From a virus: a DNA stretch of 64,000 bases. The notes below the pieces were generated by a model, which worked only from the letters and a program-made list of their open reading frames with translations, did not search any database and was not told the origin of the DNA. Shown here in pieces: positions 13,824-36,258 of this stretch (positions within the stretch are counted from its first letter, which is position 1; each line of letters starts with the position of its first letter). The stretch is taken from positions 3,862-67,861 of the IMG/VR virus record IMGVR_UViG_3300047330_000027; one strand, written 5' to 3'. The position numbers were made by a program, and so were the translations under genes.

Positions 13824-13964
13824 CTGTAGAGTTGCCCCGTTCCCAATCAGGAATAGGGCATCTGTCCAGCGCTTACCGCCTACAACTCTGCGCCTAAAGC
13901 TCTACAGCGCTCGGCACATGCCCATCGCGAAACTAAGGCCGACTGAGTTGGTGATGCAAGGGCT

Positions 13965-17297: not shown

Positions 17298-17430
17298 AGT
17301 GTGTTGCCTCCAGGCGCGTGCGGGGTAGAACTAACGTTGCAGCGAGGCTTCCAGATTCCTCGCGACTGAGACATCATAGACCCTTTTGTAACCGTTTGGG
17401 CAAGTGGAAACTTCACAGTCTCTGAATTAT

Positions 17431-17703
17431 TTACGTGGGCTCGACGATCTCTTTTGCACTTTCGTTTGTTCCATGTGGAACACCCGCGAATCGAGCTTTG
17501 CCGATTGTGAATTCCTTCGGCAACACTTCCGGCTTTGCCACCAGGACCTTGGTTTGCTTCGGCCAGTGCGTTGCCTCATTCTCGCGGTCGCACTGAGCCC
17601 AGCAGGAACAACAGAGCGCATCGTTGGTGCCTGGGCGCACGGGAGCGACGTGGTTATAGCTCGACGTGCACCCGCAGATGCAGTTGCAAACGGAGGTCAA
17701 CAT
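17431..17703 (-). CDS. small Cys-rich hypothetical protein
   Basis: TGATG overlap with the upstream gene; CxCxxxC and CCxC. Confidence 0.5.
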   Translation of the reverse strand: MLTSVCNCICGCTSSYNHVAPVRPGTNDALCCSCWAQCDRENEATHWPKQTKVLVAKPEVLPKEFTIGKARFAGVPHGTNESAKEIVEPT

Positions 17704-18164
17704 CAGTCCCCTGCCCCGAGTTGCTTCGCGTGGCTGCTGACATTCAGCTTGAATTGCTCCCATGCGGTCTGGTTGGTTCCAGGAGCGACTGCGTAAGGCA
17801 TGAACACCTGTGCGGCCTCGACCTGGTTCGATTCCACGATGGCGATCTGCGCGGCAATCCAGTCTTTGACGATGCGCCACGCAATCCACTTCGATTGCTT
17901 CTCGATGCGCGCCATCATGGTCGCCGTCCACCGCCCTCGCTGTTTTTGTTTCTTCATCGCGCGTTCGACGCCGGCCACATTCACCGGCAATGCGAACTCG
18001 ACCGATACATTGTGGATTTGGAGTACGAATGCCACCCCCGATGGCTCCCCATTGGGCGCGTAGTCTGCCCGAATCGAGCGCGCGCCTTTGGACGCGAGCA
18101 GGGCACTGATCTCAGCAACCGTCTGCTGGACCGGGATGGTGGTGGTGTAGTTCTTGATCGGCAT
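17703..18164 (-). CDS. conserved phage hypothetical protein
   Basis: MPIKNYTT...AWRIVKDW...QVFMPY pattern common in phages; AGGA SD. Confidence 0.75.
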   Translation of the reverse strand: MPIKNYTTTIPVQQTVAEISALLASKGARSIRADYAPNGEPSGVAFVLQIHNVSVEFALPVNVAGVERAMKKQKQRGRWTATMMARIEKQSKWIAWRIVKDWIAAQIAIVESNQVEAAQVFMPYAVAPGTNQTAWEQFKLNVSSHAKQLGAGD

Positions 18165-18173
18165 AAGTTCCTT

Positions 18174-18353
18174 TCAGATTTTGTGCGCAGTATGAATCAT
18201 CGGTTGCGCCTTCACGATTCCTGTGCGGCTGGTGCGCGCCGGATGCATGACAACGATCTTCTGACCATGCCGACCTCGGCAGGGCTGGCCAGCAGGCGCG
18301 AGGCAGCGCGGACACTTGCGATCAAGCGCGAACGCGGCTTTCTTCTTGATCAT
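18174..18353 (-). CDS. small phage Zn-finger protein
   Basis: CPRCLAPAGQPC...HPAR; ATGA overlap. Confidence 0.6.
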   Translation of the reverse strand: MIKKKAAFALDRKCPRCLAPAGQPCRGRHGQKIVVMHPARTSRTGIVKAQPMIHTAHKI

Positions 18354-18562
18354 GAGTTCCCTTCTTTCGGCCTATGCCCGATGTGGAAGTTCCCGCACTC
18401 GAAGCATCGGTAGGGCAAGATTTCGGTGCCGGTCGCGAGGGATCGAGCTTCCGCAACCTTCTCGGCCAGCGTGATCGAGTGGTAAGGCTTCTTCCGACCA
18501 CAGCGGCTCATCGATACCTCGGCCAGGGTGCGATGTCCGGTAATGCCGACGGGCCCGATCAT
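18350..18562 (-). CDS. small Zn-finger protein
   Basis: C..KKPY...YRCFECGNFHIGH. Confidence 0.65.
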   Translation of the reverse strand: MIGPVGITGHRTLAEVSMSRCGRKKPYHSITLAEKVAEARSLATGTEILPYRCFECGNFHIGHRPKEGNS

Positions 18563-18744
18563 GAGACGCCCATCTGCGCCTCAAGCACAGCTTTACGTGC
18601 GCGCGCGGCATCGCGTCGCTCTGCGTGAGGTTCTTTCATGGGATTGCCCTTGCCGCGCTTGACACCGCGCTCTAGCGGCCGGCAGGGGTAGCCGCGTCTT
18701 GCTTTGCACTTCGGGCACTGAACGCTCTTCCAGGTAGCGAACAT
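18559..18744 (-). CDS. small phage Zn-finger protein
   Basis: CPKCKARRGYPC...HAERR; GGAGGCAACA SD. Confidence 0.65.
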   Translation of the reverse strand: MFATWKSVQCPKCKARRGYPCRPLERGVKRGKGNPMKEPHAERRDAARARKAVLEAQMGVS

Positions 18745-18765
18745 TGCGTGTTGCCTCCGTCTTGC

Positions 18766-19107
18766 CTACTGCGAATAGTCCTCGTCAGGGGTGTGGAATA
18801 GGATTTTGTTGTCGATGATGGTGGCGACGCCGAGATGCTCACCGCTGCCGCTGTACAGGTCGACCTGTTGGACTCCGGCGCTTTGCTCCATGCTCTTCTT
18901 TTCCGCGAAGTCGCTTTCGCACCACGAGATATAGGCCACGGAGAGACCTATGCCGACGATCGATGCAAACAGCCACGCCAGGCTGAAGTGATGGTCGATT
19001 GCCCAGTTGAGGGTCAGCCAAATGCCGGTGAGCGAAGCGATGAAGAGCAGCAGGTCCAACAGAAAGTGTTTCGCTGTGCGGAGATAGATACTGCGTCTGA
19101 TCACCAT
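18766..19107 (-). CDS. two-TM membrane protein
   Basis: two hydrophobic helices; TAATG overlap. Confidence 0.6.
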   Translation of the reverse strand: MVIRRSIYLRTAKHFLLDLLLFIASLTGIWLTLNWAIDHHFSLAWLFASIVGIGLSVAYISWCESDFAEKKSMEQSAGVQQVDLYSGSGEHLGVATIIDNKILFHTPDEDYSQ

Positions 19108-19400
19108 TAGTTCACCATCACTTTCTTACCGCTGGCTGCGTCATTGAGCAGCGCGGCCGCCTGCTCAGTCTCTTGGAACTTCGCGATATTCTTCACTGCC
19201 TGCTCGATGCGATCGCCGGCGTCACCAGGTCCGTAGATGATCCACTGCATCAGCATCGCGGCTGACTCGTAGAACACGCGCCGGGTCGTCTCATAGCTTT
19301 GGTGGCTAGGGGCGAACGGTAGTTTGGCAGCGAAGTCCTGCCAAGCCATATCGATCGGCTGGATCAGCTTCGCGGCTGCTTCGTCTTCCATGCGGCTCAT
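19107..19400 (-). CDS. hypothetical protein
   Basis: ATGA-coupled; ETTRRVFYESA motif. Confidence 0.65.
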   Translation of the reverse strand: MSRMEDEAAAKLIQPIDMAWQDFAAKLPFAPSHQSYETTRRVFYESAAMLMQWIIYGPGDAGDRIEQAVKNIAKFQETEQAAALLNDAASGKKVMVN

Positions 19401-19774
19401 GGCTTGGGTTCCTGCGGCTCGATGCCGACGTGCCGATTCAATAGCTCGGGCACAGAGGGCGGTTGTGGTCGGCGGGCGCCTTCGGGTATGCCGAGCGACT
19501 GAGTATGGTCCTGCGCCTGGTCGTCATCGCCTTCGCACAGATGCACACTGCCACTATGCAGATGAGCATGCCCGATGCCGCTGATCTCCGCAACCGGCTT
19601 ACCGCGCAGCTTGATGATCAACTGATCATCGTCCTCTCTCTGGGTCGTCTCGTAGGTCCAGTCACTGACCTTTGGCAGATAGTGCAGCGTTGACATCACC
19701 GTCGTTAGCACCAGAGCCATCGTGTGCGGCGTCAGGATCGCTCCGTTGAGGCTGAGCCTGTAGATGGCGCTCAT
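19397..19774 (-). CDS. hypothetical protein
   Basis: ATGA-coupled chain. Confidence 0.6.
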   Translation of the reverse strand: MSAIYRLSLNGAILTPHTMALVLTTVMSTLHYLPKVSDWTYETTQREDDDQLIIKLRGKPVAEISGIGHAHLHSGSVHLCEGDDDQAQDHTQSLGIPEGARRPQPPSVPELLNRHVGIEPQEPKP

Positions 19775-20088
19775 AGCTTCACGGTCCGGGCGATGGATTC
19801 GTCGATCATGCCCTGCTGAAACGCCGCGTATTCGGCCTTGAGCGCAAGCAACACTTCAGCAGCCATGACTGCCATGTTAATGGCCTCCGCCTTATCTTCT
19901 GGCCCATTCAGCACCAAGTATCCCGACACTGCCAGCGCGTAGCCAGCTCCGTTGAAGAAGATCATTCGCAGCCACGCGATAAATTCAGGCGCAAACGCGC
20001 AGCCTTCATCAATCATCTGCGCGCAGCAGATTTGCCACGCATCTTGTATCGAGCGGGGCAGCTCGTGTTCGCTCATCACGAATTCCAT
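19771..20088 (-). CDS. hypothetical protein
   Basis: GGAGGCAAC SD; LRMIFFNGA resembles the motif in the 19107-19400 product. Confidence 0.6.
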   Translation of the reverse strand: MEFVMSEHELPRSIQDAWQICCAQMIDEGCAFAPEFIAWLRMIFFNGAGYALAVSGYLVLNGPEDKAEAINMAVMAAEVLLALKAEYAAFQQGMIDESIARTVKL

Positions 20089-20364
20089 CTAGTTGCCTCC
20101 TGGCCGGGTTGCGGCCATGCTGTCGTTGATTCCCTTGAATCGCCTTGCGAGCTGCTGCGCGCTGACCTTGATCGCCTCTTCAAGCGCATTCATCCCGGCA
20201 TAATCGCGGTTCTGTAGTTGCTGGAACACGAATCCCATGCCCATCAGCAGGCACCGCTCCATGGCGATGCCTGAGAGTGAGCGCCGATTGACGCCGATAA
20301 GCTTGATCGCGTGGTCCGCGAAGGCCTCAAGCGCCTCGGCTGGCGGTGGCACGGCCGGTTTCAT
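20089..20364 (-). CDS. hypothetical protein
   Basis: ATGA-coupled. Confidence 0.6.
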   Translation of the reverse strand: MKPAVPPPAEALEAFADHAIKLIGVNRRSLSGIAMERCLLMGMGFVFQQLQNRDYAGMNALEEAIKVSAQQLARRFKGINDSMAATRPGGN

Positions 20365-20780
20365 TTGTGGCCGGCAGTCGGTTTCGCGATGGTGCGGTCC
20401 TCAGGGTCGCGGCAGTCGTGGCCTTCCCGAAACGGCGTCGAGGTTTCGTTAAGGCCTCTAAATTTGGCCGTACTAACTCCAAGTGCGGTCTTCAAAGTCT
20501 CGCTCGCATACCCTTCCAACACATCGTCTGGCAGGTTTGTCAACATCAGCGATATTGTGCGGCCCTGGTGCTCTGCGCAGCCGATACCGAATGGCATGAG
20601 GTGAATCTCTTCGTTCTCGATCAACGAACAAGACACCCCGATGAATGAATGGACGTCGTACTTTTTGAGGATGGCTACAATCTCTTCGCGCATCTGCTCG
20701 CCGCGCTCGATTGCCTGTTGTGCGGTGGGTAGAATTCCGGCAGAAACGGGCGTTCCTGCGGCTTCGGCTGCATTGCTCAT
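20361..20780 (-). CDS. hypothetical protein
   Basis: CTGGAGGCAAT-ATG start. Confidence 0.65.
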   Translation of the reverse strand: MSNAAEAAGTPVSAGILPTAQQAIERGEQMREEIVAILKKYDVHSFIGVSCSLIENEEIHLMPFGIGCAEHQGRTISLMLTNLPDDVLEGYASETLKTALGVSTAKFRGLNETSTPFREGHDCRDPEDRTIAKPTAGHK

Positions 20781-20900
20781 ATTGCCTCCAGTTTGGTGAT
20801 GTGAGCTTCCAGACTCACAGGTTTTGGTCGAAAACCACGCGCTAGGAGCCTCGTGGTGCAATCCGTAAGACCCCGGTGGGCCTACGGTACCTCCGAATCG

Positions 20901-21605
20901 TCAAACGCTCGCTGCTAGCCCATCTGCGCGCGCTGACTCCCACAATGCTCTCAGCTTTGCACTCATGTCCCGCTGCACATTCTGGGGATCACTGTTGAAC
21001 GGCCAATCCACTCCGCGGTAGAAGAACGGGTGACCGTTTGCTAGCCAGCGTAAACCCTCGCGCAGCTTTCCGTCACCAGCAATTATCAACGCCTGTTCGA
21101 GCGCGGCCGGGATCTCGGGCGCCGGCCAGAGGCCTCCGCCCACCATCGCGCGCTTCTCTTCGTCCCAGGTCGAAGGCTTTGGGCAACCTTTCCAGTCAAT
21201 GCCGTGGCGTTTGAGCGCCGTCAGGAGCCAATCCATCTGCTTGGCCCACTCAACCGTGCGCTGGTATTCGAGTTTTTTCTCGACCGTCTTGAGCAGATCG
21301 AACGGCATCGGCCAATCACGATAGCGGCGCTCGCTTAGGCTGAATGCCTCGACTAGCAATGGGTAAGACAGGTGCTGCAGTGCGTCCGGGTAGACCACTA
21401 GATGCACCGGGACCACCGGTAGCTCGTGCAACGCCCGCAAACGCTGGTAAGCCCGCTGGATGGCCGCCCGGCGCTGGCGCATCGTCGCCTCCGCTGGACT
21501 CAATAGCTCGGCGTATGAGGTCGGGAGATGATGCGGCAGTAACAGCCCCGCTTCGTCGACGTCCCAGGTTCTTTCCGGATTGGACAACTCCACCAGTTCC
21601 CCCAT
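20901..21605 (-). CDS. putative replication accessory/helicase-loader (lambda P position)
   Basis: follows and overlaps the replication gene; AAGGAG SD; function inferred from position only. Confidence 0.5.
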   Translation of the reverse strand: MGELVELSNPERTWDVDEAGLLLPHHLPTSYAELLSPAEATMRQRRAAIQRAYQRLRALHELPVVPVHLVVYPDALQHLSYPLLVEAFSLSERRYRDWPMPFDLLKTVEKKLEYQRTVEWAKQMDWLLTALKRHGIDWKGCPKPSTWDEEKRAMVGGGLWPAPEIPAALEQALIIAGDGKLREGLRWLANGHPFFYRGVDWPFNSDPQNVQRDMSAKLRALWESARADGLAASV

Positions 21606-22665
21606 TGTTGCGCTCCTTCCAGATTTCCGGACTCTCTTTCCAAGTCCCATTTTCGAGCCAGCGATCCAGCCTGGCGATAAATCGATCTTCGCTCGCCGCC
21701 GACACATACACACCCCAGAGATCGAATAGGTTCGTGGCTGCCTGCTGCTGCGTCTGACTCCAGTGCTTCGCTCCCGCCTGGACTGCCTGGAGGAACATCC
21801 GCTCGGTAATCGCGAGTCGACCTGCCTTGCCGATTTTCTCTGCTTGGCCGAACAGATTTTGAAAGACGGAAGTGACGAAAATCCGGCTCGAAGAATCTGG
21901 ATTTACGGGAGTGTTTTGGAGCGGTGTTTTTGAAACAAAATCGTGATCAGAAAAATCGAAATCTTCATGTTCTCTGGGGGAGGATATTTCGGGCTGAATT
22001 TCTGCTGAAGTTTGGTGAGAATTTTCTGTGAGGTTTTCGCTGTCTCGCGCGTGCGTATTGGCTAAACTATCATCCGTAACCCCAGAGTATAAAGCTTTTG
22101 TTTTTAATATATTAAATAGGGTTTTAGTACTACTGTGCGCGCGCGAGGCGCCAGGCGAACCCATGCCCAAACGGGAAGGGGTTGGTGGGGAACCCATGCC
22201 GGATTGGGTAGGGGTTGAATCGGAACCCATGCCCAATCGGGGAGGGGTAAAGCCCTGCCCTTCCTGCTCTTGACCCCTGCCCGTATGGGTAGGGGTTGAC
22301 ACTGTACTACCCCTGCCCATTTCGGTAGGGGTTACATCTTCCTGACCCATGCCCATTTGGGTATGGGTATCAGGTCTAATTCTGGTCACGTCGAGGGCGA
22401 AAAAGTCGCCTTTCGGATGACCAATCTTTCCCACCCGTTTCAAGTACCCTGTGCGGATCAACTGCGCGAGGGCAGCTCTGGTCTGTTTCTGGGCAAAGCC
22501 AATCTCTGCCGCGATCTCTGAAACCCGCGCTTGTATAGCATTTTCCTCGGCATCAAGTCTATGTGCGAAGTAGCCGAGAACCGCCTTCTGATACCCAGGA
22601 TACGGATGGTCTTTCGTTGATTCGATGGTGGTTTTGTACGCCCAATGGCCATGCTTACTGCTCAT
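21316..22665 (-). CDS. replication initiator (lambda O-like), N-terminal winged HTH
   Basis: VSEIAAEIGFAQKQTRAALAQLIRTGYL HTH; internal iteron repeats; C-terminal DRFIARLDRWLENG. Confidence 0.75.
   Translation of the reverse strand: MSSKHGHWAYKTTIESTKDHPYPGYQKAVLGYFAHRLDAEENAIQARVSEIAAEIGFAQKQTRAALAQLIRTGYLKRVGKIGHPKGDFFALDVTRIRPDTHTQMGMGQEDVTPTEMGRGSTVSTPTHTGRGQEQEGQGFTPPRLGMGSDSTPTQSGMGSPPTPSRLGMGSPGASRAHSSTKTLFNILKTKALYSGVTDDSLANTHARDSENLTENSHQTSAEIQPEISSPREHEDFDFSDHDFVSKTPLQNTPVNPDSSSRIFVTSVFQNLFGQAEKIGKAGRLAITERMFLQAVQAGAKHWSQTQQQAATNLFDLWGVYVSAASEDRFIARLDRWLENGTWKESPEIWKERNNGGTGGVVQSGKNLGRRRSGAVTAASSPDLIRRAIESSGGDDAPAPGGHPAGLPAFAGVARATGGPGASSGLPGRTAAPVLPIASRGIQPKRAPLS
22085..22369. repeat. 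putative replication origin: six 26-bp quasi-palindromic iterons plus AT-rich unwinding element
   Basis: ACCC(A/C)TGCC-N6-GG(T/A/G)A(G/T)GGGT units starting at 22158, 22191, 22224, 22272, 22308, 22344; AT-rich tract with palindrome TTTAATATATTAAA at 22103-22116. Confidence 0.8.
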
Positions 22666-23027
22666 AGGACGTGACCCCACACAAATACCTCAAGTGGATC
22701 AGGGTGATGGGAAGGGTCGGGATCGAGACGGCATGGCTGCCGTCGGGTGTTCGCGGCCTTCCAGTTCCGCAAACGTGTTGTCATGGGCGCACAGGCCCGC
22801 GATCGTTCATCAGTGATCCTCAGCTCCTCAGCGGTACTCCGACCTCGATCTCACTGGCAACATGGGCTGAGGGCCATGCGCCAGTCTGTCTGCCTACTCG
22901 CGATCCTCAATCTTGTTTGCGCTGGCCGGCGCTACCGAGGACGGCTTTCAGATCAGAGACTTCACGATACACGCGAGCTGTTTTGCTCGCAAGGTGAGAA
23001 ATGTGGTTCTGTTGAATTGTTGGCATT

Positions 23028-23477
23028 TTACGGGAAATTCGGGTCAGAACAGGCCTCTAGGAGCCTCACCTTGCGATCGCTGGCAGCCCGGACGACCTTA
23101 GATACCACCGAAATCGTCCTGGCCACGCGCGCATCGACTGTAGCCCCAATCTGGGCCTCCAGAGTGTCTACCGTGACCCCCTGAAAGCGGTGCAGGCGGT
23201 TTGCCTTGACCGAGGGATTGCGCCATAAGGTGTCGCGACGCACCACGTAGTAACTGCGGCGCTGCTCGATCTGCGTGATGAGATTGGCCGCGAGCAGAAT
23301 GGGTATCGAGTCCTGAGCGTGCTGGATCCGCATGCGCATGCCGGCCGCGATGTGCTTGGCCGGGGCATACGCAATATCGAGTGAGTTTGCCTGAAGCGCC
23401 ATGTATAACAGTGTGCGGAAAGGTCTCGCGTCGACCGGCGCGCGATCCATGACGAGGTAAACCAGATCGTGCTTCAT
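23028..23477 (-). CDS. HTH DNA-binding protein
   Basis: AKHIAAGMRMRIQHAQDSIPILLAANLI HTH-like; first gene of the leftward arm. Confidence 0.6.
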   Translation of the reverse strand: MKHDLVYLVMDRAPVDARPFRTLLYMALQANSLDIAYAPAKHIAAGMRMRIQHAQDSIPILLAANLITQIEQRRSYYVVRRDTLWRNPSVKANRLHRFQGVTVDTLEAQIGATVDARVARTISVVSKVVRAASDRKVRLLEACSDPNFP

Positions 23478-23635
23478 CTGGTGACGATTGTAATCCGTGA
23501 AAATAATTTGTGTTGCGTTTGTGTCTCATGTGTGTCATTGTTATTTTGTCAGTCTGGAAGCTGACCCGAAAATGGAGGCACTCGAAGCCTAACCCCATTG
23601 CCCCGCCGACAAGGCGGGGCAAGGAGATAAAAAAG
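23478..23635. promoter_or_regulatory. divergent early control region
   Basis: AT-rich; candidate TTGTGT-17-TATTTT promoter (23519-23547); TGTGT repeats; CTGGAAG hairpin 23548-23565; perfect 10-bp hairpin 23598-23622. Confidence 0.55.
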
Positions 23636-23890
23636 ATGACGAAAACAGTACAACTCCCAGAAAGGTTATTCAAGGACGGAGAAATCCCGGTTTGGGTCAC
23701 CTACAGTCTCACCGATGAACACGCGCAAAGTAGCTATGGGCGCCCAGTGCTGGTTGGGCCTGACGGGACGGCATACGGCCCTGATGATCGTTTACCCAAC
23801 GGCGATTGGGCTGCCTTGGCTGTGCAACTGTCCTGTGACGGCATCGACGATCCTGAATATTTCACAGCTGTTAACAGGTTTGTCGGTTAG
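23636..23890 (+). CDS. hypothetical protein
   Basis: AAGGAG SD; LTDEHAQSSYGRPVLV motif. Confidence 0.7.
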   Translation: MTKTVQLPERLFKDGEIPVWVTYSLTDEHAQSSYGRPVLVGPDGTAYGPDDRLPNGDWAALAVQLSCDGIDDPEYFTAVNRFVG

Positions 23891-23892
23891 CC

Positions 23893-24156
23893 ATGAAACA
23901 GCAAACCATCGACGCCGGAAGGGAGATTGTAATGGGAAAGACATTCAAGGTGGGTACGAAGGTCTATTGCTTGCGCGAACACCCCGACGCCATCGGCGAA
24001 GTTATCCGCATCATGCCACGCGGTCTACAAATAGAGTGGACCGCACCACCATCCCCCACGCTGCCATTCGGCTGCATTAACCTAGAGCTTTGGGTTTACG
24101 CAGACCTACATCTTTTACGAGTAATCGGAGAGGAGCGCTTGCCGCATTCATCCTAG
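23893..24156 (+). CDS. hypothetical protein
   Basis: FKVGTKV SH3-like start; co-oriented. Confidence 0.55.
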   Translation: MKQQTIDAGREIVMGKTFKVGTKVYCLREHPDAIGEVIRIMPRGLQIEWTAPPSPTLPFGCINLELWVYADLHLLRVIGEERLPHSS

Positions 24157-24402
24157 ATACACTGGCGAAAAACCGGAACGCTGCCCAATACCTCTACCGC
24201 AATCAGATTGGATCGTACGCTCGCGTTCAGGTTATGGACCTGCTGGACGACATTCGCCGTAATTACCTGAAAGATGACACATACGCTCGCCAGTCGCGGG
24301 CATTGATGCTTCGCTAATCGCCAAGTCGCCGCGCTGCTCCTACAGCGCGCGGATCGTCGTAAGCTCCGCAACAATTTCATCAACCCAACCAGGAGGGAAA
24401 CA

Positions 24403-24543
24403 GTGCAGACGACACTCGAAGCGCTACGCACCATCTGGCGCCACCTTTTCACGCCGCGGTGCTGCTGCGGAAAGTGGGGCGAAGCGCCCTGCTCGCCCGA
24501 ATGCAACGAGGAAATGGCCCACCGTCAGGCTTGGTATGGCTGA
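24403..24543 (+). CDS. small Cys-containing hypothetical protein
   Basis: AGGAGG SD plus GTG; 46 aa. Confidence 0.45.
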   Translation: MQTTLEALRTIWRHLFTPRCCCGKWGEAPCSPECNEEMAHRQAWYG

Positions 24544-24619
24544 TCGTCAGGTCCGGTAGTTCAACCACCAGGCGCGTCTGGAAGCGCGCCTCTTCACCAC
24601 CACAGGAGGCAACAGGCAG

Positions 24620-24898
24620 ATGTACAGATCATTCTCTGGTCGCTTTTATCTTCAGCCGTCCGTCGAGACGCTGCTCAACGACATCCACTCCTTCTCTCAG
24701 CACTCGAAAGAGATGCTGGACTGCTCGCGGCTCCAGGCTAATTGCGGGAACCATTCGCTCGCGCACGCCTACGCAGTCATGGCCGGCAGCTCGGCCAGGT
24801 CCGCTGCGCATCTCGCGGAACAGGTTGAACGAGACTTCCCCGTCACCTATCTCTGTATGACCGTGGCCCACTCTCAACAGAAGACGGTGGCCGCGTGA
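24620..24898 (+). CDS. hypothetical protein
   Basis: GGAGGCAACA SD. Confidence 0.6.
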   Translation: MYRSFSGRFYLQPSVETLLNDIHSFSQHSKEMLDCSRLQANCGNHSLAHAYAVMAGSSARSAAHLAEQVERDFPVTYLCMTVAHSQQKTVAA

Positions 24899-25001
24899 GC
24901 CCGCGCGATCGCGAGGACATCGCGAATGCCGGATGGCTGCTGGTGATCATCGTCGTCACGCTGTTCTCGCTGTTGTTTCTGACCATGCCAGGAGGTCCGA
25001 G

Positions 25002-25142
25002 ATGAAGAACGCTCTCAAGGAATACGCCATCATGCTCGGGATCGGCCTGGTCTACCTGGCCGTGGTCGGTCTTCCTGCGGTGGCTGTGCTGCACGAGTCA
25101 CTGTTCAACCTCGCAAACCACTTTTCCGCATACCACTTCTAG
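25002..25142 (+). CDS. small TM protein
   Basis: AGGAGG SD; one hydrophobic helix. Confidence 0.5.
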   Translation: MKNALKEYAIMLGIGLVYLAVVGLPAVAVLHESLFNLANHFSAYHF

Positions 25143-25150
25143 GAGGCAGC

Positions 25151-25993
25151 ATGACACGTGTACTCGATCTGAAAACGCTTAAACTAAAAGTGGGCAGTCA
25201 CAATCCCTCATCGCATGAAATGTGCGTCATGGAAGCGGTTGCCTTTGTCGCCGGGGAGCCTTGGTCGGATTCGCCGGAATGCGCATCGCCTGTGATCGCA
25301 GCATTCCTGCGGTCTTATAACGACTCGGTGTCGGACGAAGTTCGCCAATCGCTGAAGCAGTACATCCCGCGATTAATTGGCACACGCGGCACTGATGCGC
25401 AGGAAGAAGCACGATCACTGATTGTTGCCGATTGGCTGGTACGCACGCATACCCCGGCATGGCTGCGGTTGGCTGGACTCACTCAGCAAGCAGAAGCGCT
25501 GTCATCTCTGCCGGAAATTACATCGATGGCGCAAATACCGTCGATCAAGCCAGCCATTGAAGCCGCTAGAACAGCCGCAAACGCCGCTGGGGCCGCCGCT
25601 CGGGACGCCGCAAACGCCGCCGCAAGCGCCGCTGGGGACGCCGCTGGGGACGCCGCTGGGGCCGCCGCTGGGGCCGCCGCTTGGGCCGCTTGGGCCGCCG
25701 CTGGGGACGCTGCTCGGGACGCTGCTGGGGCCGCTGCTTGGGACGCTGCTCTGGACGCTGCTCTGGCCGCTGCTCGGGACGCTGCTCTGGCCGCCGCTGG
25801 GGCCGCCGCTGGGGCCGCCGCTGGGGCCGCCGCTGGGGCCGCCGCTGGGGCCGCCGCTGGGGCCGCCGCTCGGGACGCTGCTTGGGACGCTGCTCTGGAC
25901 GCTGCTCGGGCTAAGTTGGATCCTACGGTCGCAGAACTCCAAGCCACGGTTCCAGCGTTGATTGAACGAATGCTCGCAGTAGGTGCTCAATGA
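25151..25993 (+). CDS. phage hypothetical protein with Ala-rich tetrapeptide repeats
   Basis: CVMEAVAFVAGEPWSDSPECASPVI N-domain; (AAxA/AAxD)n repeats. Confidence 0.8.
   Translation: MTRVLDLKTLKLKVGSHNPSSHEMCVMEAVAFVAGEPWSDSPECASPVIAAFLRSYNDSVSDEVRQSLKQYIPRLIGTRGTDAQEEARSLIVADWLVRTHTPAWLRLAGLTQQAEALSSLPEITSMAQIPSIKPAIEAARTAANAAGAAARDAANAAASAAGDAAGDAAGAAAGAAAWAAWAAAGDAARDAAGAAAWDAALDAALAAARDAALAAAGAAAGAAAGAAAGAAAGAAAGAAARDAAWDAALDAARAKLDPTVAELQATVPALIERMLAVGAQ
25583..25908 (+). repeat. 12-bp tandem coding repeat (GCCGCTGGGGCC and variants)
   Basis: directly visible array encoding AAGA/AARD/AAWD. Confidence 0.85.
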
Positions 25994-26039
25994 GCACAAC
26001 TTTTCCGGTCGAGATGCACTGCGGTTCCGGCGGTGACGA

Positions 26040-26225: not shown

Positions 26226-26282
26226 CCTGCCCGAATGCTGGCGACTTCGGCAAAAGAAGACGCTAGGCGAAAGGACACACCT

Positions 26283-26477: not shown

Positions 26478-26538
26478 AGAGCAGCCCTGTAACACACTGC
26501 GCGTCTGGAAGCGTGCAGCCACCTGGAGGCAACACATT

Positions 26539-27117
26539 ATGGCACTCGTACTCGCATTCCCAGCCACTCGGCTGGAGCCTGCTGAATATAAATCTCTCGA
26601 TCCCGTCTATTGCGCTCACTGCCATCAGGAGTGGGACGAAGACGACCACCGCGACGAATTCACCGAAGTCGACGGCGCGATCTACTGCAACGAAACCTGC
26701 CTGCGCATCGCGCGTCTCGAAGCGATCCGCACGGAAGCCAAGCATCGCCTCGCCACCGCGCTCGAAGAGCTGATCGCCCGCGCCTACTCGCTGTCCCGGG
26801 AATATGGAGAGGTCGATGAGGATGAGCACGCGCGACCGATCTCGATTCTTGAAGACGCCGCCGAGCACCTCGACGGATTCATTCACAACTATCCCACCGG
26901 CTATCGCGACGGCGGCATCATGCTCTCGGTCGTCGAGAAAGACAAGATCGAGCGCTCGCTGAAGGAATGCCTGGAGCGCGACTACCGCGAGCTGACCGCC
27001 AAACCGCACCTTGGGTACATGATTGCTCCGCGCATGGCACGTGCCGGCGTTTCTCTGATGATGCTCGACAACCAAACGCGCGAGAGCCAAGGGCAGGAAG
27101 CGAAATGGAGCCTGTGA
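26539..27117 (+). CDS. hypothetical protein with Cys motif
   Basis: GGAGGCAACA SD; CAHC...YCNETC. Confidence 0.7.
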   Translation: MALVLAFPATRLEPAEYKSLDPVYCAHCHQEWDEDDHRDEFTEVDGAIYCNETCLRIARLEAIRTEAKHRLATALEELIARAYSLSREYGEVDEDEHARPISILEDAAEHLDGFIHNYPTGYRDGGIMLSVVEKDKIERSLKECLERDYRELTAKPHLGYMIAPRMARAGVSLMMLDNQTRESQGQEAKWSL

Positions 27118-28019: not shown

Positions 28020-28030
28020 GGAGCCCCACG

Positions 28031-28969: not shown

Positions 28970-29056
28970 GACACTCGGCAAAAAGAACCGTGGACTAGTT
29001 CGCAACCTGGAAGGCCGAACTAGTCCAGTGACACACCAAGAAATCGGAGGCAACAA

Positions 29057-30904
29057 GTGAAGATTGACCGTATCGCCCTTACGAATTTCCGCAGCCACGC
29101 CGCCACCAACCTTAACCTCACGCGCATCAATGTGATTCGCGGCGCGAACGGCGTCGGCAAGTCGTCAATCGAACAGGCTATTCAACTCGCGCTTTCTGGC
29201 ACCTGCGAAGGGTTGACTGCGAGCGGCGCGGGTTCGGCCAACCTGATCCGCACCGGAGCAGAGAAAGCCGAAATCATCCTCGCGACGTCGCACGGGGACC
29301 GTAAGGTGACCATAACGCCTGCCGGGAAAGCCACCAAGGATCGCGAGTGGACGGCGAAGCACCGCGACTTGGTGTTCGCGTGCGTCACCAACACGCGCTA
29401 CTTCCTGTCGCTCACCCAGGCGAAACAGTCCGAAGTACTCGCTTCGCTGATCCTGCCACCGAGCATGACGCTGGAGCCAAAGGTTGCCGAAGCTATGGAT
29501 GCTGTCGGCATCGTTTGCGACCTGACGATACCGCCGTTTCAGTTCATCGAGCAGGCATACAAGGCCGCATTCGAGGCCCGGCGCGACGTGAACCGCGACC
29601 TGAAGAACTGGCGCCCGATCGCCTACACCGCGCCGGCGGAGGGCGGAACGGTTGCCGAGATCCGCGCGCGGCTCAAAGAACGGCAGGACGAACTGGCGAG
29701 CCTGAAGGCCAAACGCCACACCGCCGTCGAGTCGTCGAACGCCAACGCGGATCGCAAGGCGCGCGCAGGAGCGGCATACGACATCAAGAAGCAGCGCCTT
29801 GAGACCGAACAGCGCATCCTCAACGACGCGAACAAGCAGGTACTGCCGAAGGCGAAGGTGGCCGAACTTAAGAAGGTCGCCGCAAACAAGGCGCGCGCCG
29901 TCGAACTCGATGCCATCATCCTCGAACAGCAGGCCGAGGTGCGGCGCCTCCAGGCGCACGCAAAGCAGCTTACCGACAAACTCGAAGATGCCACAAACTG
30001 CCCGACCTGCAATCAGCTCATCACCGAGGAAGTGGCGCAGGCGCTGGTGGCTCCCCTGGCCATGAACATCGATAAGGCGATCGAGATCGAACGCGGCTCG
30101 ATTGACGCGCGCAAGGCATTGGGTGACCCGGAAGCCGCATCGCGGGAGTTGCGCGTCCACGAGCAGGCACTACAGGACGCGGACCGCAGCCGTGCGCGCA
30201 TTGCGGAACTCGAAAAGGACATCGCCGAACTCGAACACGATCGCAACCTGGTGATCGAGATCGTCGATACCTCGTCGATTGATCAGCAGATAGCCGACCT
30301 GGAGCGTCGCCTTGAGAAGGGCAACCAAGCCTATGGGGAAGCACTCAACAACGAAAACCGCAAGAAGGAGTACACCGAGAACCAGAAGCTGAAGGCTGAG
30401 CTGGAACGGTCGAAACAGCATCTCGAATTTCTGGTGGAGCGGTTTTCCCCGACCGGCATCAAGGCCGAGATGCTCAACGAATCCATCGGTGGATTCGAGC
30501 AGCGGGTCAACCAGGTGCTTCACGCCTTCGGGTACGAGGCGCACCTCAGGTTCGAGCCGTATGAGTTTCGCGTTACCCGCGACGGCATGAAGGGCGATCT
30601 CGAACTGTTGATGCTCTCGAAGTCGCAGCAGATGCGCTTTGCCGTGGCGTTCCAGGTGGCGCTCGCGCTGTGGTCGGGCGTGAAGATGGTCGTCATCGAC
30701 GAGACGGACATGCTCGATGCTGCCGGCCGCTCGGCGCTCATGCGCACGCTGGTGGGACTCCAGGGACTCGACCAGGCCATCTGCATCGGCACCGACGAGC
30801 GCACGAATGTGCCCGACGCGCCCGGGCTGAGCGTGTTCTACATCTCTACCGGCGACGATCTCGTGAGCGAAGTGAACCTGCTCGGAAGGCCGGTTGCGGC
30901 ATGA
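29057..30904 (+). CDS. SbcC/Rad50-like ABC ATPase
   Basis: NFRSH; Walker A GANGVGKSS; coiled coil with CPTC zinc hook; LSKSQ signature; Walker B VVIDE. Confidence 0.85.
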   Translation: MKIDRIALTNFRSHAATNLNLTRINVIRGANGVGKSSIEQAIQLALSGTCEGLTASGAGSANLIRTGAEKAEIILATSHGDRKVTITPAGKATKDREWTAKHRDLVFACVTNTRYFLSLTQAKQSEVLASLILPPSMTLEPKVAEAMDAVGIVCDLTIPPFQFIEQAYKAAFEARRDVNRDLKNWRPIAYTAPAEGGTVAEIRARLKERQDELASLKAKRHTAVESSNANADRKARAGAAYDIKKQRLETEQRILNDANKQVLPKAKVAELKKVAANKARAVELDAIILEQQAEVRRLQAHAKQLTDKLEDATNCPTCNQLITEEVAQALVAPLAMNIDKAIEIERGSIDARKALGDPEAASRELRVHEQALQDADRSRARIAELEKDIAELEHDRNLVIEIVDTSSIDQQIADLERRLEKGNQAYGEALNNENRKKEYTENQKLKAELERSKQHLEFLVERFSPTGIKAEMLNESIGGFEQRVNQVLHAFGYEAHLRFEPYEFRVTRDGMKGDLELLMLSKSQQMRFAVAFQVALALWSGVKMVVIDETDMLDAAGRSALMRTLVGLQGLDQAICIGTDERTNVPDAPGLSVFYISTGDDLVSEVNLLGRPVAA

Positions 30905-31188
30905 CTGAATTCGAGAAAGAACTCGCTTCTCTCATCAACCGTCACAGCAAGGAAAACGGAAGCATGACGCCCGATTTCATCCTTGCCTCTTACCTGACGG
31001 AGTGTTTGGCCAACTTCGACCGCATCATGCTGTGGCGCCAGAAGTGGTATTCGCCTGAAGGCGTGCCGGCAGCCGAAAGGATCAACGGGCCCAAGCCTAC
31101 CCAGGCTCGCCGCGAGCCCTGTTTCGATTGCGACACTGACGGCAGATGCACGATGAACTGCGGACCGCGAATTGAGGCCAAGCCATGA
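30901..31188 (+). CDS. conserved phage hypothetical protein
   Basis: LINRHSKENGSMTPDFILASYL motif. Confidence 0.7.
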   Translation: MTEFEKELASLINRHSKENGSMTPDFILASYLTECLANFDRIMLWRQKWYSPEGVPAAERINGPKPTQARREPCFDCDTDGRCTMNCGPRIEAKP

Positions 31189-31505
31189 GCATGCAGGTGT
31201 ACCTGGTGACCGCGAGCGGCAGCACGACCGGGCAAAGCATTTTCGCGTATGACCCGGATGTGCCCATCGGCAACACGGGCAGTTCGCTCTCGCTTTCGGG
31301 CAACCTGATCCAGTTCGATAACGACGACAGCGACAACGTGAACCTCATGGTCACGCTCTACGCGAACCAGGACCAGGCGGTTTTTACCGGCATGATTCCC
31401 TACTCGGCCTTCGCGCCCGGCAAGAGCCCGAGCATGCGCGTGAACCTTGCGACTGCCGACAAGTGGTGCACCGTGCTGTTTCAGCTCTTGGAGGCAGCGG
31501 CATGA
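31185..31505 (+). CDS. hypothetical protein
   Basis: ATGA-coupled. Confidence 0.6.
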   Translation: MSMQVYLVTASGSTTGQSIFAYDPDVPIGNTGSSLSLSGNLIQFDNDDSDNVNLMVTLYANQDQAVFTGMIPYSAFAPGKSPSMRVNLATADKWCTVLFQLLEAAA

Positions 31506-31798
31506 ATGGAACCCTCTACATCAACGAAAGCGATGAGTGGATCTGGACACTCGCGCGCAAGTACGCCGGCAACCGGCTTTCGCGGGTGGTTCTCGACATC
31601 TTGCGGGATTACGTGGCGGATCGGATGCTGATCAATGCCCAGCGCCATCTTCTCGAACGCGGGGAAGTGTTCTTCGACCCCGTTGCGTTCGTCGTGATCG
31701 ACCAGGCGCGTGGCCGGCTTAGGGGCACGATGGCCGCGAAGGAGCGCCCAGATGCCGCGGCCCTGGAGCATCTGATCGACGAAAGCGGGATGGTCTAG
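31502..31798 (+). CDS. hypothetical protein, possible RHH
   Basis: ATGA-coupled; TLYINESDEWIW...LSRVVLDILRDYV. Confidence 0.55.
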   Translation: MNGTLYINESDEWIWTLARKYAGNRLSRVVLDILRDYVADRMLINAQRHLLERGEVFFDPVAFVVIDQARGRLRGTMAAKERPDAAALEHLIDESGMV

Positions 31799-31799
31799 G

Positions 31800-33662: not shown

Positions 33663-33871
33663 CGCTTGATCCGAACAAACTAAAAGCTGATACCGAGCAG
33701 TTTCTTAAAGACATGGCAGGGAGCCGGGAACGCAGTTCTGCCGCTATAGACGTGCATGAAGATCATGCAACACTTCCAGGGCTTGATGAACTTCGTGGGA
33801 CATCCCCAAAATTCGAGGAAGGAATGAGCTCCGAAGAATTTGTTCGCTCAATTCGAGATGCCAACTGGTAG
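33659..33871 (+). CDS. hypothetical protein
   Basis: ATGA-coupled to the MTase; LDELRG...SSEEFVRSIRDANW. Confidence 0.55.
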   Translation: MTLDPNKLKADTEQFLKDMAGSRERSSAAIDVHEDHATLPGLDELRGTSPKFEEGMSSEEFVRSIRDANW

Positions 33872-34132
33872 AGATCACATTGTCTATTGGGATACAGCCA
33901 TCACGCAGCGTGCGCAATCAAAGCAGCGAAAGCGATGGGCAAATGGGTTCATGTTGGCCGAGTTAATACGCCAAGTCGATTTGAATATTTCGAGAAACTG
34001 GGCGCCGATTCGATTGACGGCAGCGGCCTAGCACGCTTTTCGTGGATGAGACAGCGGTTGCACGGCGAGTATGCGCAGCCAGGGTTGTATCCGGACGAGA
34101 ACACGACTATAGAACAGGATGGTTACGCATGA
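33872..34132 (+). pseudogene. C-terminal remnant of a TGT/DpdA-like phage protein
   Basis: AKAMGKWVHVGRVNT...GADSIDGSG; in-frame TAG immediately upstream, N-terminal part missing. Confidence 0.5.
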
Positions 34133-34887
34133 GTGAAGGAGCGCCACTCGTCATCGATTTGTTCTGCGGCTTAGGCGGATGGGCCGATGGATTTCTTGCG
34201 GAAGGATATGAAGTGCACGGATACGACATTGAAGCACATGACTACGGTACTGGCGGCTATCCCGGAACGCTGATCCTCAGAGATGTCCGCACCATTCACG
34301 GCTCCGAACTAAAAGACGCTACCTGCATTGTTGGATCGTCGCCCTGCCAGGAATTCAGCTACCGCGCCATGCCGTGGAAACGGGCCAAGGCGCTTCCGCC
34401 GCCATACCTCGGCATGGAACTCTTTCAGCACCAGTTCCGCATTCAGCGCGAGGCATCAGAAGCGGCAGGCAGGCATATTCCGATGGTGGTTGAAAATGTC
34501 AAGGGCGCGCAGCCTTGGGTCGGTAAGGCGGCTTGGCATTACGGCAGCTTCTACCTTTGGGGAGATGTGCCGGCGTTGATGCCAAAGGTTGCACATCGCA
34601 AGTTAAAGACAGTCGGGCCGGTGACGGTTCATCAAGCCGTGAATCACAATTGCCACATAAACGAGACGCGAGATGCATTCAAAGAGGGCGTCAAATTCTG
34701 CCAATCCGGTGCGGCTTGGTTCGACGGCAAGCCCCGAAACAAGATGCTTGGTCATTTTGGCCCAGCTGCCTTCGGATCAAAGAGTAATGCGCGCAAAGCA
34801 GCATCGGCCATGATTGCAAAGATTCCGTTTGATTTGGCTGTGTGGATTGCGCGGGCCTACAAACCAGCGGAAAAGAAAACGGCATGA
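34129..34887 (+). CDS. C5 cytosine DNA methyltransferase-like protein (short phage type)
   Basis: IDLFCGLGG (motif I), SSPCQEFS (IV), VENV (VI). Confidence 0.82.
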   Translation: MSEGAPLVIDLFCGLGGWADGFLAEGYEVHGYDIEAHDYGTGGYPGTLILRDVRTIHGSELKDATCIVGSSPCQEFSYRAMPWKRAKALPPPYLGMELFQHQFRIQREASEAAGRHIPMVVENVKGAQPWVGKAAWHYGSFYLWGDVPALMPKVAHRKLKTVGPVTVHQAVNHNCHINETRDAFKEGVKFCQSGAAWFDGKPRNKMLGHFGPAAFGSKSNARKAASAMIAKIPFDLAVWIARAYKPAEKKTA

Positions 34888-35177
34888 GTGAAGGAGCAGC
34901 AATGAAGAGAAAGATAAGGCACCCCCGCCGCTGGAAAGTCGTTCTGCACGTGACTGACCGGCCCAAAAAAGATGAGGCGTATATGTCCGCACAGGAGATA
35001 TTCCAGATATTCAAAAAGATGGGCGATCTACCGGCTGGCATAAAGATTCACATGATAAAGCCGGAATTCGTGCCTGAAGCGGTGGCCAAGAATGAAGGTG
35101 CGAGATGGCCGACGACAGTGCCGAAATACCAGTCACGAGTCATTACCTTTGTTGAGAAGAGAGGAGAGCAGCAATGA
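34884..35177 (+). CDS. hypothetical protein
   Basis: ATGA-coupled. Confidence 0.5.
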   Translation: MSEGAAMKRKIRHPRRWKVVLHVTDRPKKDEAYMSAQEIFQIFKKMGDLPAGIKIHMIKPEFVPEAVAKNEGARWPTTVPKYQSRVITFVEKRGEQQ

Positions 35178-35223
35178 GCGAGACAACCAAACCAGATGAG
35201 GTGGCAAAAGCGAAGGAGATGAA

Positions 35224-35535
35224 ATGAGTTACGGATTCGGACAACAGAACGACATGGTTCACGAAGTAGGAACGTGGGGCACGAAGGTATTCACTACAGC
35301 CACACCTGATTCAATTTGCGCTCACCTACGGAAAGAAGTCTTAGAGCTTTCCGCGAAACCCGATGATGAAGAAGAGGGCGCAGACTGTATTCTTCTCATC
35401 TACCACTTAGCACATCGGCAAGGCTGGAACCTTGAGCAGGCAGTGCGCAATAAGTTCGAGAAAAACAAAAAACGAAAGTGGGGTGCGCCAGATGCGGATG
35501 GTGTGTGTGAACACGTTCGCGAGGAGCAGCCCTGA
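35224..35535 (+). CDS. DUF550-type dATP/dGTP pyrophosphohydrolase (all-alpha NTP-PPase)
   Basis: HLRKEVLEL...EEGADCILL...KFEKNKKRKW..PDADGVCEHV. Confidence 0.78.
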   Translation: MSYGFGQQNDMVHEVGTWGTKVFTTATPDSICAHLRKEVLELSAKPDDEEEGADCILLIYHLAHRQGWNLEQAVRNKFEKNKKRKWGAPDADGVCEHVREEQP

Positions 35536-35554
35536 ACCCCTCGGAGGAGCAGAA

Positions 35555-35713
35555 ATGACGGCCACGCGTGAGGCGGTATGCCGGTGGTGCGGCGGCACGA
35601 TCATAAAAGATGACGTCTTCGAAAATGAGTGGTTGCACATGCGTTCTCGCGATTTTTGGAATTGTCACGGTGACTGCCCCGAGCCAGCCCCCGAAAAGCG
35701 CGAGAACGAATAA
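35555..35713 (+). CDS. small Cys/His hypothetical protein
   Basis: GGAGGAG SD; CRWC...WLH. Confidence 0.5.
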   Translation: MTATREAVCRWCGGTIIKDDVFENEWLHMRSRDFWNCHGDCPEPAPEKRENE

Positions 35714-35717
35714 TTAC

Positions 35718-36242
35718 ATGTTGACCGCAGACCAATTCGATGAGCGCGTGAAGGACCTCTATCGGTACCAGCGCGACCGCCTCAAGCGTTTCCAGAAAAA
35801 GAAGCGCTGGAAGTGGTTTCGTCCGACCGAACTGAGCTTCACCCTGGACGACTTCGCGCTCAAGGTTTGGAAGACAGTCGGACTCTTCGCCATTCCCTGC
35901 CGCTTCTGCTCGCGGCCGGTGGACGTGTTGGAGATCAGCCCCGACCACCACCATCCGCTTAAGTACGGCGGAACTTGGGATCTCGATAACCTCGATTGCG
36001 ACGTATGCGATCAATGCAACCGAATGAAAGGAGCTCTCCACCACGATGACTACGTAAAACTGCGCACCTGCCGGCAACAGCTTTCACCCGCAGGGCAAAG
36101 CGAACTCGACTCCATTCTCCAAAACGCAGGACCAGGCATGCAGGCGCGCTGGAAGGCGCATGCGGACCGGGCGGCCAAAACGAAAACCCCGAAGAACCCT
36201 CCCCGCGCGAAGCAGGAAGAGTTCTTGAGCAAGATGTGGTAA
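35718..36242 (+). CDS. HNH endonuclease
   Basis: CRFC...DHHHPLKYGGTWDLDNL...CDQCNRMKG. Confidence 0.8.
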   Translation: MLTADQFDERVKDLYRYQRDRLKRFQKKKRWKWFRPTELSFTLDDFALKVWKTVGLFAIPCRFCSRPVDVLEISPDHHHPLKYGGTWDLDNLDCDVCDQCNRMKGALHHDDYVKLRTCRQQLSPAGQSELDSILQNAGPGMQARWKAHADRAAKTKTPKNPPRAKQEEFLSKMW

Positions 36243-36258
36243 CCGGAGGCAACACACG

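Follow-up and report, generated by a model that had tools for sequence, protein, structure and literature searches.

A repeated ribosome binding site motif at early gene starts of a phage from moss metagenomes, and a candidate antisense RNA partner

Why should a phage repeat, base for base, a part of its ribosome binding sites that is not expected to pair with 16S RNA? This question is raised by a stretch of 64,000 nucleotides (nt), here called the window, which covers bases 3862-67861 of the 67,861-bp virus record IMGVR_UViG_3300047330_000027, a phage from moss metagenomes with 59% G+C. In the window, the decamer GGAGGCAACA, a GGAGG Shine-Dalgarno core followed by the tail CAACA, stands immediately ahead of unrelated genes, several times behind a small hairpin with the tip CTGGAAG. 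An initial annotation took this motif as the second target of a small RNA (sRNA) encoded by the phage, which would block translation initiation directly. The observation is real, and the antisense mechanism proposed at that time is plausible.

A Shine-Dalgarno motif with a constant tail

Eight exact copies of GGAGGCAACA are present in the window, against 0.15 expected, and none of 100 shuffled sequences reached eight. It is the commonest 10-mer of the genome, if one excepts the overlapping words of one GC-rich repeat, the unit of a 12-bp tandem array. Six of the eight copies stand 1-5 nt ahead of a start codon (ATG or GTG); the six genes concerned are unrelated and spread over both arms. On the minus strand, the copy at 17302..17311 is the ribosome binding site of the open reading frame (ORF) 16965..17297, whose ATG follows after 4 nt, and the copy at 18749..18758, which has no upstream hairpin, is that of ORF 18559..18744, encoding a phage zinc-finger domain protein. 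On the plus strand, the copies at 24605..24614 and 26525..26534 serve ORFs 24620..24898 and 26539..27117, the one at 29046..29055 serves an SbcC-like gene (29057..30904, with its GTG 1 nt after the motif), and the one at 36245..36254 serves ORF 36259..36984, which is conserved in relatives and precedes a DnaB-like helicase gene. Partial copies are found directly ahead of four more early starts: GGAGGCAAC, with 9 of the 10 bases, at 20092..20100 on the minus strand, within the last codons of the upstream ORF (ribosome binding site of ORF 19771..20088); GGAGGCAA at 20782..20789, also on the minus strand, directly ahead of the ATG of ORF 20361..20780; and on the plus strand GGAGGCA(GC) at 25142..25148 and GGAGGCA(GCGGC) at 31490..31496, ahead of the ATG of ORFs 25151..25993 and 31502..31798. 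The positions given in the initial annotation for the six exact copies, for GGAGGCAAC and GGAGGCAA, and for GGAGGCA at 23574 and 25142 were all exact. Its list had missed the eighth copy, at 5938-5947 on the plus strand, and a partial copy, AGGCAACAC, at 13460-13468 on the same strand.

Likeness between copies can exceed ten bases. The copy ending at 17311 extends to CCTGGAGGCAACACAC and the one at 26525 to CCTGGAGGCAACACA, the latter string being common to the two, and the copies at 17311 and 36245 share GGAGGCAACACAC. The string CCTGGAGGCAACA, by which the annotation had extended the pairing with its candidate sRNA, is indeed found at 17302-17314 and 26522-26534. The canonical 3' end of 16S RNA offers no pairing for the tail CAACA, which agrees with one of the five positions of UGAUC, the canonical continuation; that of the host may differ. 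The view that the tail is not needed for 16S pairing finds support within this limit. The tails are bimodal: a GGAGG core precedes 16 starts, six times within the exact motif and once with 9 of the 10 bases, and the tails of the remainder are unrelated.

Is the motif restricted to one class of genes? The gene list (74 starts) is our own; it combines open frames, G+C by codon position and a self-trained periodic Markov score, with start sites checked by inspection. Classes were inferred from position and content, the long minus-strand block being called late (27 starts) and the rest early (47 starts). The exact motif precedes 6 of 47 early starts and 0 of 27 late ones (Fisher p=0.08). Counts were 7/47 versus 0/27 for matches of at least 9 bases out of 10 (p=0.043), 8/47 versus 0/27 for GGAGGCAA (p=0.024), and 14/47 versus 2/27 for the GGAGG core (p=0.038). 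One late start (60018) has GGAGGCACCC, which contains GGAGGCA. The claimed restriction to early and middle genes stands as a count, the full motif being absent ahead of the 27 late genes, but it is statistically modest.

The same motif could also have been a general feature of the phage family or of bacteria. Four relatives are known, the virus records G001, G003, G004 and G005. The pattern GGAGGCAAC occurs in them 0-3 times, as does a control pattern (0-3). None of the four has the motif, which is not kept across related phages, and no excess of CTGGAAG was seen in G001. In 151 sampled bacterial genomes of one phylum (which need not be that of the host) no enrichment was found, the maximum being 21 copies in 4.7 Mb, versus 8 in 64 kb here; a Luteibacter genome has 7 copies. 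Among the genomes compared, the exact motif is specific to this phage, and is neither a family-wide nor a general bacterial feature. We hold it very probable that GGAGGCAACA(C) is a discrete, phage-specific, start-associated ribosome binding site module. The module comprises the GGAGG core, the tail CAACA(C), not expected to pair with 16S RNA, 3-4 free bases and the start codon. Out of about 47 non-structural genes it serves 6 to 10, on the two divergent arms.

The composition of the tail, as opposed to its exact sequence, is general. Spacers between core and start have 68% A+C in early and 67% in late genes (genome 48%), and A/C-rich, G-poor spacers are also typical of early and late genes of the relatives. 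These favour contexts of their own, in both classes: AGGAGCC in G003, where AAAGGAGCCCCACC occurs twice and a leader AAGGAGCC(C/T) is repeated ahead of early and late genes, and AGGAGCAACAC in G001, twice, ahead of one early and one late gene. Since such spacers are equally found in late genes and in relatives, the composition of the tail needs no sRNA; only its exact repetition needs explaining.

These observations are those on which a purely cis-acting explanation can be built. Selection for strong expression of some early genes at the level of translation, or recombination, would have fixed one best leader, CCUGGAGGCAACACAYUAUG, in which the GGAGG core is followed by a G-poor spacer unable to fold back; there would be no trans partner, the hairpins would be separate elements (stabilisers of the 5' or 3' end of mRNA, or processing sites), and copies of the motif that precede no gene would be relics. 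Related leaders do exist in late genes (AAGGAGAACCACC, GGAGGCACCC, AGGAGCCACC), and the similarity between copies reaches the start codon. However, to have the exact tail in 6 of the 14 early GGAGG-core sites requires about 84% conservation per position, and yet the other tails are unrelated. The distance from GGAGG to ATG, moreover, is 9-10 nt in five of the six copies, longer than the usual optimum known from E. coli work. Two further difficulties, the constant tip of the hairpins and the setting of one gene-less copy, are described below. We regard the cis-acting explanation as possible but rather unlikely.

Hairpins with a common tip

The sequence CTGGAAG occurs 31 times in the window, against 7.8 expected. 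Of its 32 copies in the genome, 14 have a flanking stem of at least 5 pairs (11% for random positions), and the six with stems of at least 6 pairs all lie between 17.3 and 29.0 kb. Stems have no sequence in common, and one includes a G-T pair, whereas at the tip the sequence is fixed, in most cases as UCUGGAAG. Of 22 GGAGGCA sites, 8 are preceded on their own strand by CTGGAAG at a distance of 5-52 nt, where 0.01 is expected per site (binomial p=2×10−11). Seven of these eight lie between genes, the two motifs being 13-36 nt apart; the eighth (43775) is within a coding region. The coupling to a CUGGAAG hairpin described in the initial annotation is therefore confirmed. A tip conserved over unrelated stems is not explicable by duplication, which argues against the purely cis-acting leader.

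Three of the hairpins stand directly upstream of rightward motif copies: 24570..24591 (7-bp stem, loop UCUGGAAG, 20 nt ahead of the motif), 26497..26518 (7-bp stem with the G-T pair, loop UCUGGAAG, 13 nt ahead) and 28991..29027 (12-bp stem with CCUGGAAGG at its tip, 32 nt ahead). Two are found at leftward sites, 17342..17363 (6-bp stem, loop AAUCUGGAAG, 36 nt ahead of the motif) and 20800..20819 (6-bp stem, loop UCUGGAAG, 16 nt ahead of GGAGGCAA). Also on the minus strand, a hairpin with an 8-bp stem and the loop AACUGGAAGG lies at 22749..22774, upstream of a Rep-like ORF, and one with a 5-bp stem and the same loop at 16744..16763. A short GC hairpin with a GCUGGAAG loop, at 36144..36159 (plus strand), is inside an HNH gene, 90 nt ahead of the motif. 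By eye, an anti-Shine-Dalgarno sequence was seen in the 3' arm of the hairpin in 2 of 7 cassettes; these are too few to count, and the idea of a cis switch of this kind was set aside.

The fixed tip and the Shine-Dalgarno core could both be bound by a protein. The operator for a phage or host RNA-binding protein, on the model of T4 RegA or CsrA/RsmA, would comprise the GGA of the loop and the GGA of the Shine-Dalgarno core, and the protein would bridge the two and occlude the ribosome. Two GGA elements are indeed present, with 20-43 nt from one GGA to the other; a hairpin loop contains the upstream one and the Shine-Dalgarno sequence the downstream one. This is the layout of CsrA/RsmA dual sites, with a GGA in a short hairpin loop and another in the Shine-Dalgarno sequence some tens of bases downstream. 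In addition, CUGGAAG and CUGGAGG differ by one letter, and four of the ribosome binding site copies read CUGGAGG. CsrA sites are of the form A(N)GGA, though, and the loop here is UGGAA. No homologue of CsrA (PF02599) or RegA (PF01818) was found in the six frames of the phage, and no RNA-binding domain among 67 ORFs scanned against Pfam. The best matches of the phage ParA are alphaproteobacterial, and most members of that group are not known to have CsrA. Finally, a copy of the motif in reverse complement, the subject of the next section, is left unexplained by a protein. Such an operator seems improbable to us, even if the partner of SAS, a comparable motif of mycobacteriophages, is left undecided between RNA and protein in the Cluster K papers (PMC3203893, PMC11373665).

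Alternatively, hairpin and motif may form a DNA-level element, a promoter or recombination cassette like the hairpin promoters of N4, the promoters within the ESAS of Cluster K or the mobile cassettes of T4-type phages, which combine a promoter and a stem-loop, with the Shine-Dalgarno part being incidental. At the head of the rightward arm, the hairpin at 23548..23565 (plus strand, 5-bp stem, loop UCUGGAAG) is exactly in the spacer of a sigma-70-like match, TTGTCA-16-GAAAAT (23546-23573), and GGAGGCA directly follows at 23574..23580 with no start codon behind it. At 20812, a terminator-like hairpin with its T-run ends 10 nt ahead of the CTGGAAG hairpin, too close for a normal promoter to fit between them. 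A putative promoter is reported in each Adephagia ESAS (PMC11373665). Against this, the other hairpins have no -35/-10 match, either by eye or in a scan of 12800-25200, and the motif copies at 18758, 20100 and 36245 have no nearby hairpin and are found right at stop/start junctions, as ribosome sites are. We give a DNA-level element little credit.

Hairpin promoters of the N4 type, read by a giant virion polymerase, were considered and rejected, as no RNA polymerase was found. The ORF at 41700-51794 on the minus strand encodes 3364 amino acids (aa) and matches helicase families only, with Strawberry-notch-type helicase domains (AAA_34, Helicase_C_4) in mid-protein; it is kept in the relatives, and no solved structure was matched by sequence.

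Gene-less copies and a candidate antisense RNA

Two exact copies of the motif have no gene behind them. The first, at 13346..13355 on the plus strand, lies with a CTGGAAG (13323..13329, plus strand, 16 nt ahead of it) in a 330-nt gap between two minus-strand genes, and no start codon follows. It is flanked by the inverted repeat GCCTG/CAGGC. Read on the minus strand it becomes UGUUGCCUCC, exactly complementary to the ribosome binding site motif, as the initial annotation had noted, and CTGGAAG becomes CUUCCAG, at the tip of a 46-nt hairpin (13301-13346). The partial copy at 13460..13468 (plus strand) gives GUGUUGCCU in the same stretch. Along the minus strand the order is thus GUGUUGCCU (13468-13460), UGUUGCCUCCAGG (13355-13343) and CUUCCAG (13329-13323). 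A plus-strand gene behind this gene-less copy was considered and rejected: no start is in reach, and ORF 13473..13829 (plus strand) has no homologue and has less G+C at third than at first codon positions. The minus-strand gene 13506..13823, in contrast, encodes a zinc-ribbon protein (CxxC...CxxC, TSKPLPF, GKSTGRPRK) conserved in G001, G003 and G004. With a conserved gene on the minus strand, and on the plus strand an ORF that has no homologue and the wrong codon-position G+C, the gap is best seen as the 3' untranslated end of the minus-strand message. This untranslated stretch, 13505 to 13235, runs up to an intrinsic terminator at 13240..13264 (minus strand, 10-bp stem with 6 G-C pairs, T-run), and the UGUUGCCUCC seed region is located 82-106 nt upstream of it.

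Structure in this region is specific to the minus strand. The 189 nt from 13232 to 13420 fold at -96.1 kcal/mol (z-score -6.9) on the minus strand versus -76.4 kcal/mol (z-score -3.4) on the plus strand, and the hairpin 13301-13346 at -27.9 kcal/mol (z-score -4.3) versus -17.6 kcal/mol (z-score -0.7). In a local minus-strand fold, UUGCCUC is exposed in the 7-nt loop of the GCCUG/CAGGC stem. A copy placed in such a context speaks against the relic of a lost or moved cassette that the purely cis-acting explanation would make of it.

The seed has 10-14 nt of perfect complementarity to 7 sites. With a 25-nt seed segment, pairing energies of -27 kcal/mol or better are obtained for 6 initiation regions, all of them early, and none of 500 random 25-mers reached at least 6; given the motif count, this comparison is circular. 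With the threshold at -17 kcal/mol, 13 leaders are matched on average by random 25-mers, and only the -27 threshold discriminates. Energies of duplexes between the full-length RNA and the leaders were also computed and were dropped as non-discriminating (median -44.0 kcal/mol early versus -43.05 late).

A putative minus-strand RNA, structured and closed by a terminator, would carry both motifs in reverse and in the order needed for pairing, and an antisense RNA is on this account the most economical candidate. The antisense mechanism would work as follows. In cis, the motif is simply a ribosome binding site, and its A/C-rich tail would keep the core unpaired. The exactly repeated tail and hairpin tip, with 7 sites coupled to an upstream hairpin of fixed CUGGAAG tip and free stem sequence, would be handles for one trans-acting partner. 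The likeliest partner would be the minus-strand RNA 13505 to 13235, the structured 3' untranslated end of the zinc-ribbon gene, whose UGUUGCCUCC(AGG), second GUGUUGCCU and CUUCCAG are ordered so as to pair with hairpin tip plus ribosome binding site. Pairing would begin at the loop and then extend over the Shine-Dalgarno core, blocking 30S binding on the whole gene set. That this minus-strand antisense RNA is the partner of the motif we put a little below an even chance.

Several points tell against the antisense RNA, beginning with the A/C-rich spacers of late genes and relatives and the repeated leaders that the relatives have of their own, both already described. In the global fold the first 6 of the 10 seed bases are paired (unpaired probability about 0), which leaves CUCC free, and the opening cost is about 5 kcal/mol. 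A search of RNA sequencing runs gave none containing the sequence, and no expression evidence for the minus-strand RNA was obtained. There is no convincing promoter for a separate small transcript: a scan of 13264-13560 on the minus strand was empty, with weak hexamers seen by eye only. The motif, the hairpin tip and the RNA stretch are all missing from the four relatives (G001 has no similar stretch), which leaves no basis for a covariation test. The early-versus-late contrasts are modest (p=0.02-0.08) and depend on gene calls and classes of our own making. The spacer of the gene-less copy at 13346 resembles that of the 26525 cassette, so this copy could be the relic of a duplicated cassette, as the purely cis-acting explanation also proposes. 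Lastly, the second gene-less copy, at 5938..5947 on the plus strand, is antisense within the last 40 codons of a late ORF of 2008 aa (5841..11867, minus strand), and is outside the reach of the model. It shares with the copy at 13346 the 14-mer GGAGGCAACAGGCT (5938-5951), with no likeness beyond these 14 bases, and on the coding strand it is read in frame as Ser-Leu-Leu-Pro-Pro.

For the sRNA candidate of the initial annotation, then, the complementarity stands, with strong structure and a terminator in addition. A promoter of its own was not found in the scan, and the stretch is the 3' untranslated region of 13506..13823 (minus strand). A search of Rfam gave no C4 or other family match at gathering score, only terminator-like matches below threshold. 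As for whether the tail is a general ribosome binding site feature, the answer from the genomes sampled is no for the exact motif, and yes for the A/C-rich composition, which late genes and relatives have too.

The place of the candidate RNA on the genome may hint at when it would be made. In the phage, as in G001, G003 and G004, the zinc-ribbon gene stands just ahead of the block of large genes, a position which suggests that its product may be a late-gene activator. Boxes of the form AATGGTA/G were observed ahead of late genes, at 13209, 54172 and 2375 of the window and at 854 of the genome, all on the minus strand. They resemble AAAAATGGTAGGGTACGC, present in five copies on the late-gene strand of G001, one with TTGACG 16 nt upstream of TAGGGT. 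These boxes are candidate late promoters of the phage group. With the RNA placed on the zinc-ribbon message just upstream of the late block, and AATGGTA boxes past the terminator, co-expression with the late switch is conceivable, as a speculation.

Genome setting and comparison with known systems

The record is classed by IMG/VR as linear and 99% complete. An ORF at 63366-64000 of the window (minus strand) continues at 2-853 of the genome on the same strand, for about 494 aa in all. As this ORF spans the end and the start of the record, the linear record is cut inside a gene, and the genome is circularly permuted or circular. The rightward arm (23.6-39.2 kb) has RecE-, RecT- and SbcC-like genes, methyltransferases, the HNH gene and the DnaB-like helicase. 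The leftward arm, from 23.5 down to 13.5 kb, has small genes and a weak replication-initiator match, with a ParA gene on the opposite strand. Large minus-strand genes make up the late block, behind the 13264-13240 terminator and through the record ends to 39305; they have almost no family matches and are common to G001 and G003-G005 at 29-81% protein identity. A conserved protein of 427 aa is 63-81% identical in the four relatives, which are distant and do not share the early small genes of the phage. Searches for closer ones by megablast and tblastn against phages and plasmids gave no match, and three scans of viral contigs and metagenomes were also empty. On the host there are hints only: the best ParA matches are alphaproteobacterial plasmids (58-61%), and one RecT match is in Luteibacter (60%). 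Contigs from four DNA runs are near-identical to the window, with 0 differences at motif sites and few elsewhere, and are uninformative on variation.

Repeats other than the motif were also observed. The 12-bp unit CGCCGCTGGGGC is repeated 26.6 times at 25582-25894, inside ORF 25151..25993 (plus strand), and contigs of other runs pile up and differ there. At 22157-22368, two adjacent tandem arrays with units of 33-36 bp, in about 5.5 copies, each contain a palindrome-like ACCCCTGCCCA..TGGGTAGGGGT. They are inside ORF 21316..22680 (minus strand), which has the weak replication-initiator match and may have been called too long. Together with the ParA gene (14894..15535, plus strand), these arrays have the look of an iteron-type module for plasmid replication and partition, here inside a virus record.

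Three known systems are analogous in function alone. In P1 and P7, the c4 antisense RNA of immI is a small structured RNA in which two exposed sequences pair with two targets, one of them covering a ribosome binding site. The antisense arrangement proposed here resembles it by two-site pairing that includes the ribosome binding site, and by being a same-strand product, part of a longer transcript; however, c4 has a single downstream target in its own operon, whereas here 6-10 targets on both arms would be served by a predicted RNA. T4 RegA is a protein repressor of many early genes, with A/U-rich operators that overlap initiation regions. Common to both cases is one factor that shuts off translation of many early genes through a sequence in the initiation region, but RegA is a protein with A/U-rich operators and has no homologue here. 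The CsrA/RsmA dual sites share the layout described above; they differ by their A(N)GGA loop, and the phage lacks CsrA.

The start-associated sequences (SAS/ESAS) of Cluster K mycobacteriophages come closest among known systems. The phage motif works like SAS and is not a member of that family. SAS is asymmetric, 13 bp long, and has an AGGAG core between conserved flanks that do not pair; it is present in 11-19 copies. In the published account (PMC3203893), the copies stand 3-7 bp ahead of starts, in the non-structural half only, about half of them with an upstream inverted repeat, and four Cluster K phages have a single copy in opposite orientation that precedes no gene. Its binding partner, RNA or protein, was left open by the authors in 2011 (PMC3203893), and its role is still called unknown in later papers (PMC11373665, 2024; PMC12699233, 2025). 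A literature search for RNA data on ZoeJ or SAS returned unrelated papers only. We looked at the right 49 kb of phage Anaya and found 17 SAS matches with at most 2 mismatches, 16 of which are on the gene strand. The lone reverse copy (record 59870-59882) is located in a 385-nt noncoding gap between genes 96 and 97 (record 59690-60065). This gap begins with a terminator-like hairpin and a U-run and is much more stably folded than shuffled sequences (z-score -6.2), and within it a local hairpin has the copy in its 10-nt loop.

The two systems are alike in several respects. Both are asymmetric repeats around a Shine-Dalgarno core, with conserved positions that are not expected to pair with 16S RNA. 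Both lie a few bases ahead of the starts of unrelated genes, in the non-structural part only; SAS is rare or absent in host genomes, and the motif here is not enriched in the bacterial genomes sampled. About half of the copies in each have an upstream inverted repeat. Each has a single gene-less copy in opposite orientation, which in Anaya, as here, is in a structured noncoding gap and a hairpin loop. They differ in sequence (GGGATAGGAGCCC for SAS, GGAGGCAACA here), in copy number (11-19 versus 6-10) and in lineage, the present one being unrelated and its host probably proteobacterial. SAS is kept across subclusters, whereas the motif here is not shared by known relatives. The upstream elements differ as well: here a fixed loop with free, compensating stems, which is RNA-like, and in ESAS conserved arms without compensation, read as a DNA site with a promoter.

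In its full form, the proposal would be that one structured antisense RNA, the 3' end of the mRNA of a putative late activator, silences an early regulon by kissing of the loop and zipping of the Shine-Dalgarno tag, and that the same logic explains the SAS of Cluster K. We consider this chain as a whole possible, but doubtful. If the tail is only an optimised spacer, the motif would be an ordinary strong ribosome binding site consensus. If the proposal is true, the minus-strand transcript would play the part of T4 RegA as an RNA, a single molecule ending translation of a private early-gene set at the late switch, and the motif tag could serve as an orthogonal translation handle. The architecture itself, a tagged ribosome binding site on non-structural genes with an upstream inverted repeat and a reverse orphan copy, recurs here in an unrelated and uncultured lineage, which makes it a case of convergence and not a peculiarity of one phage cluster.

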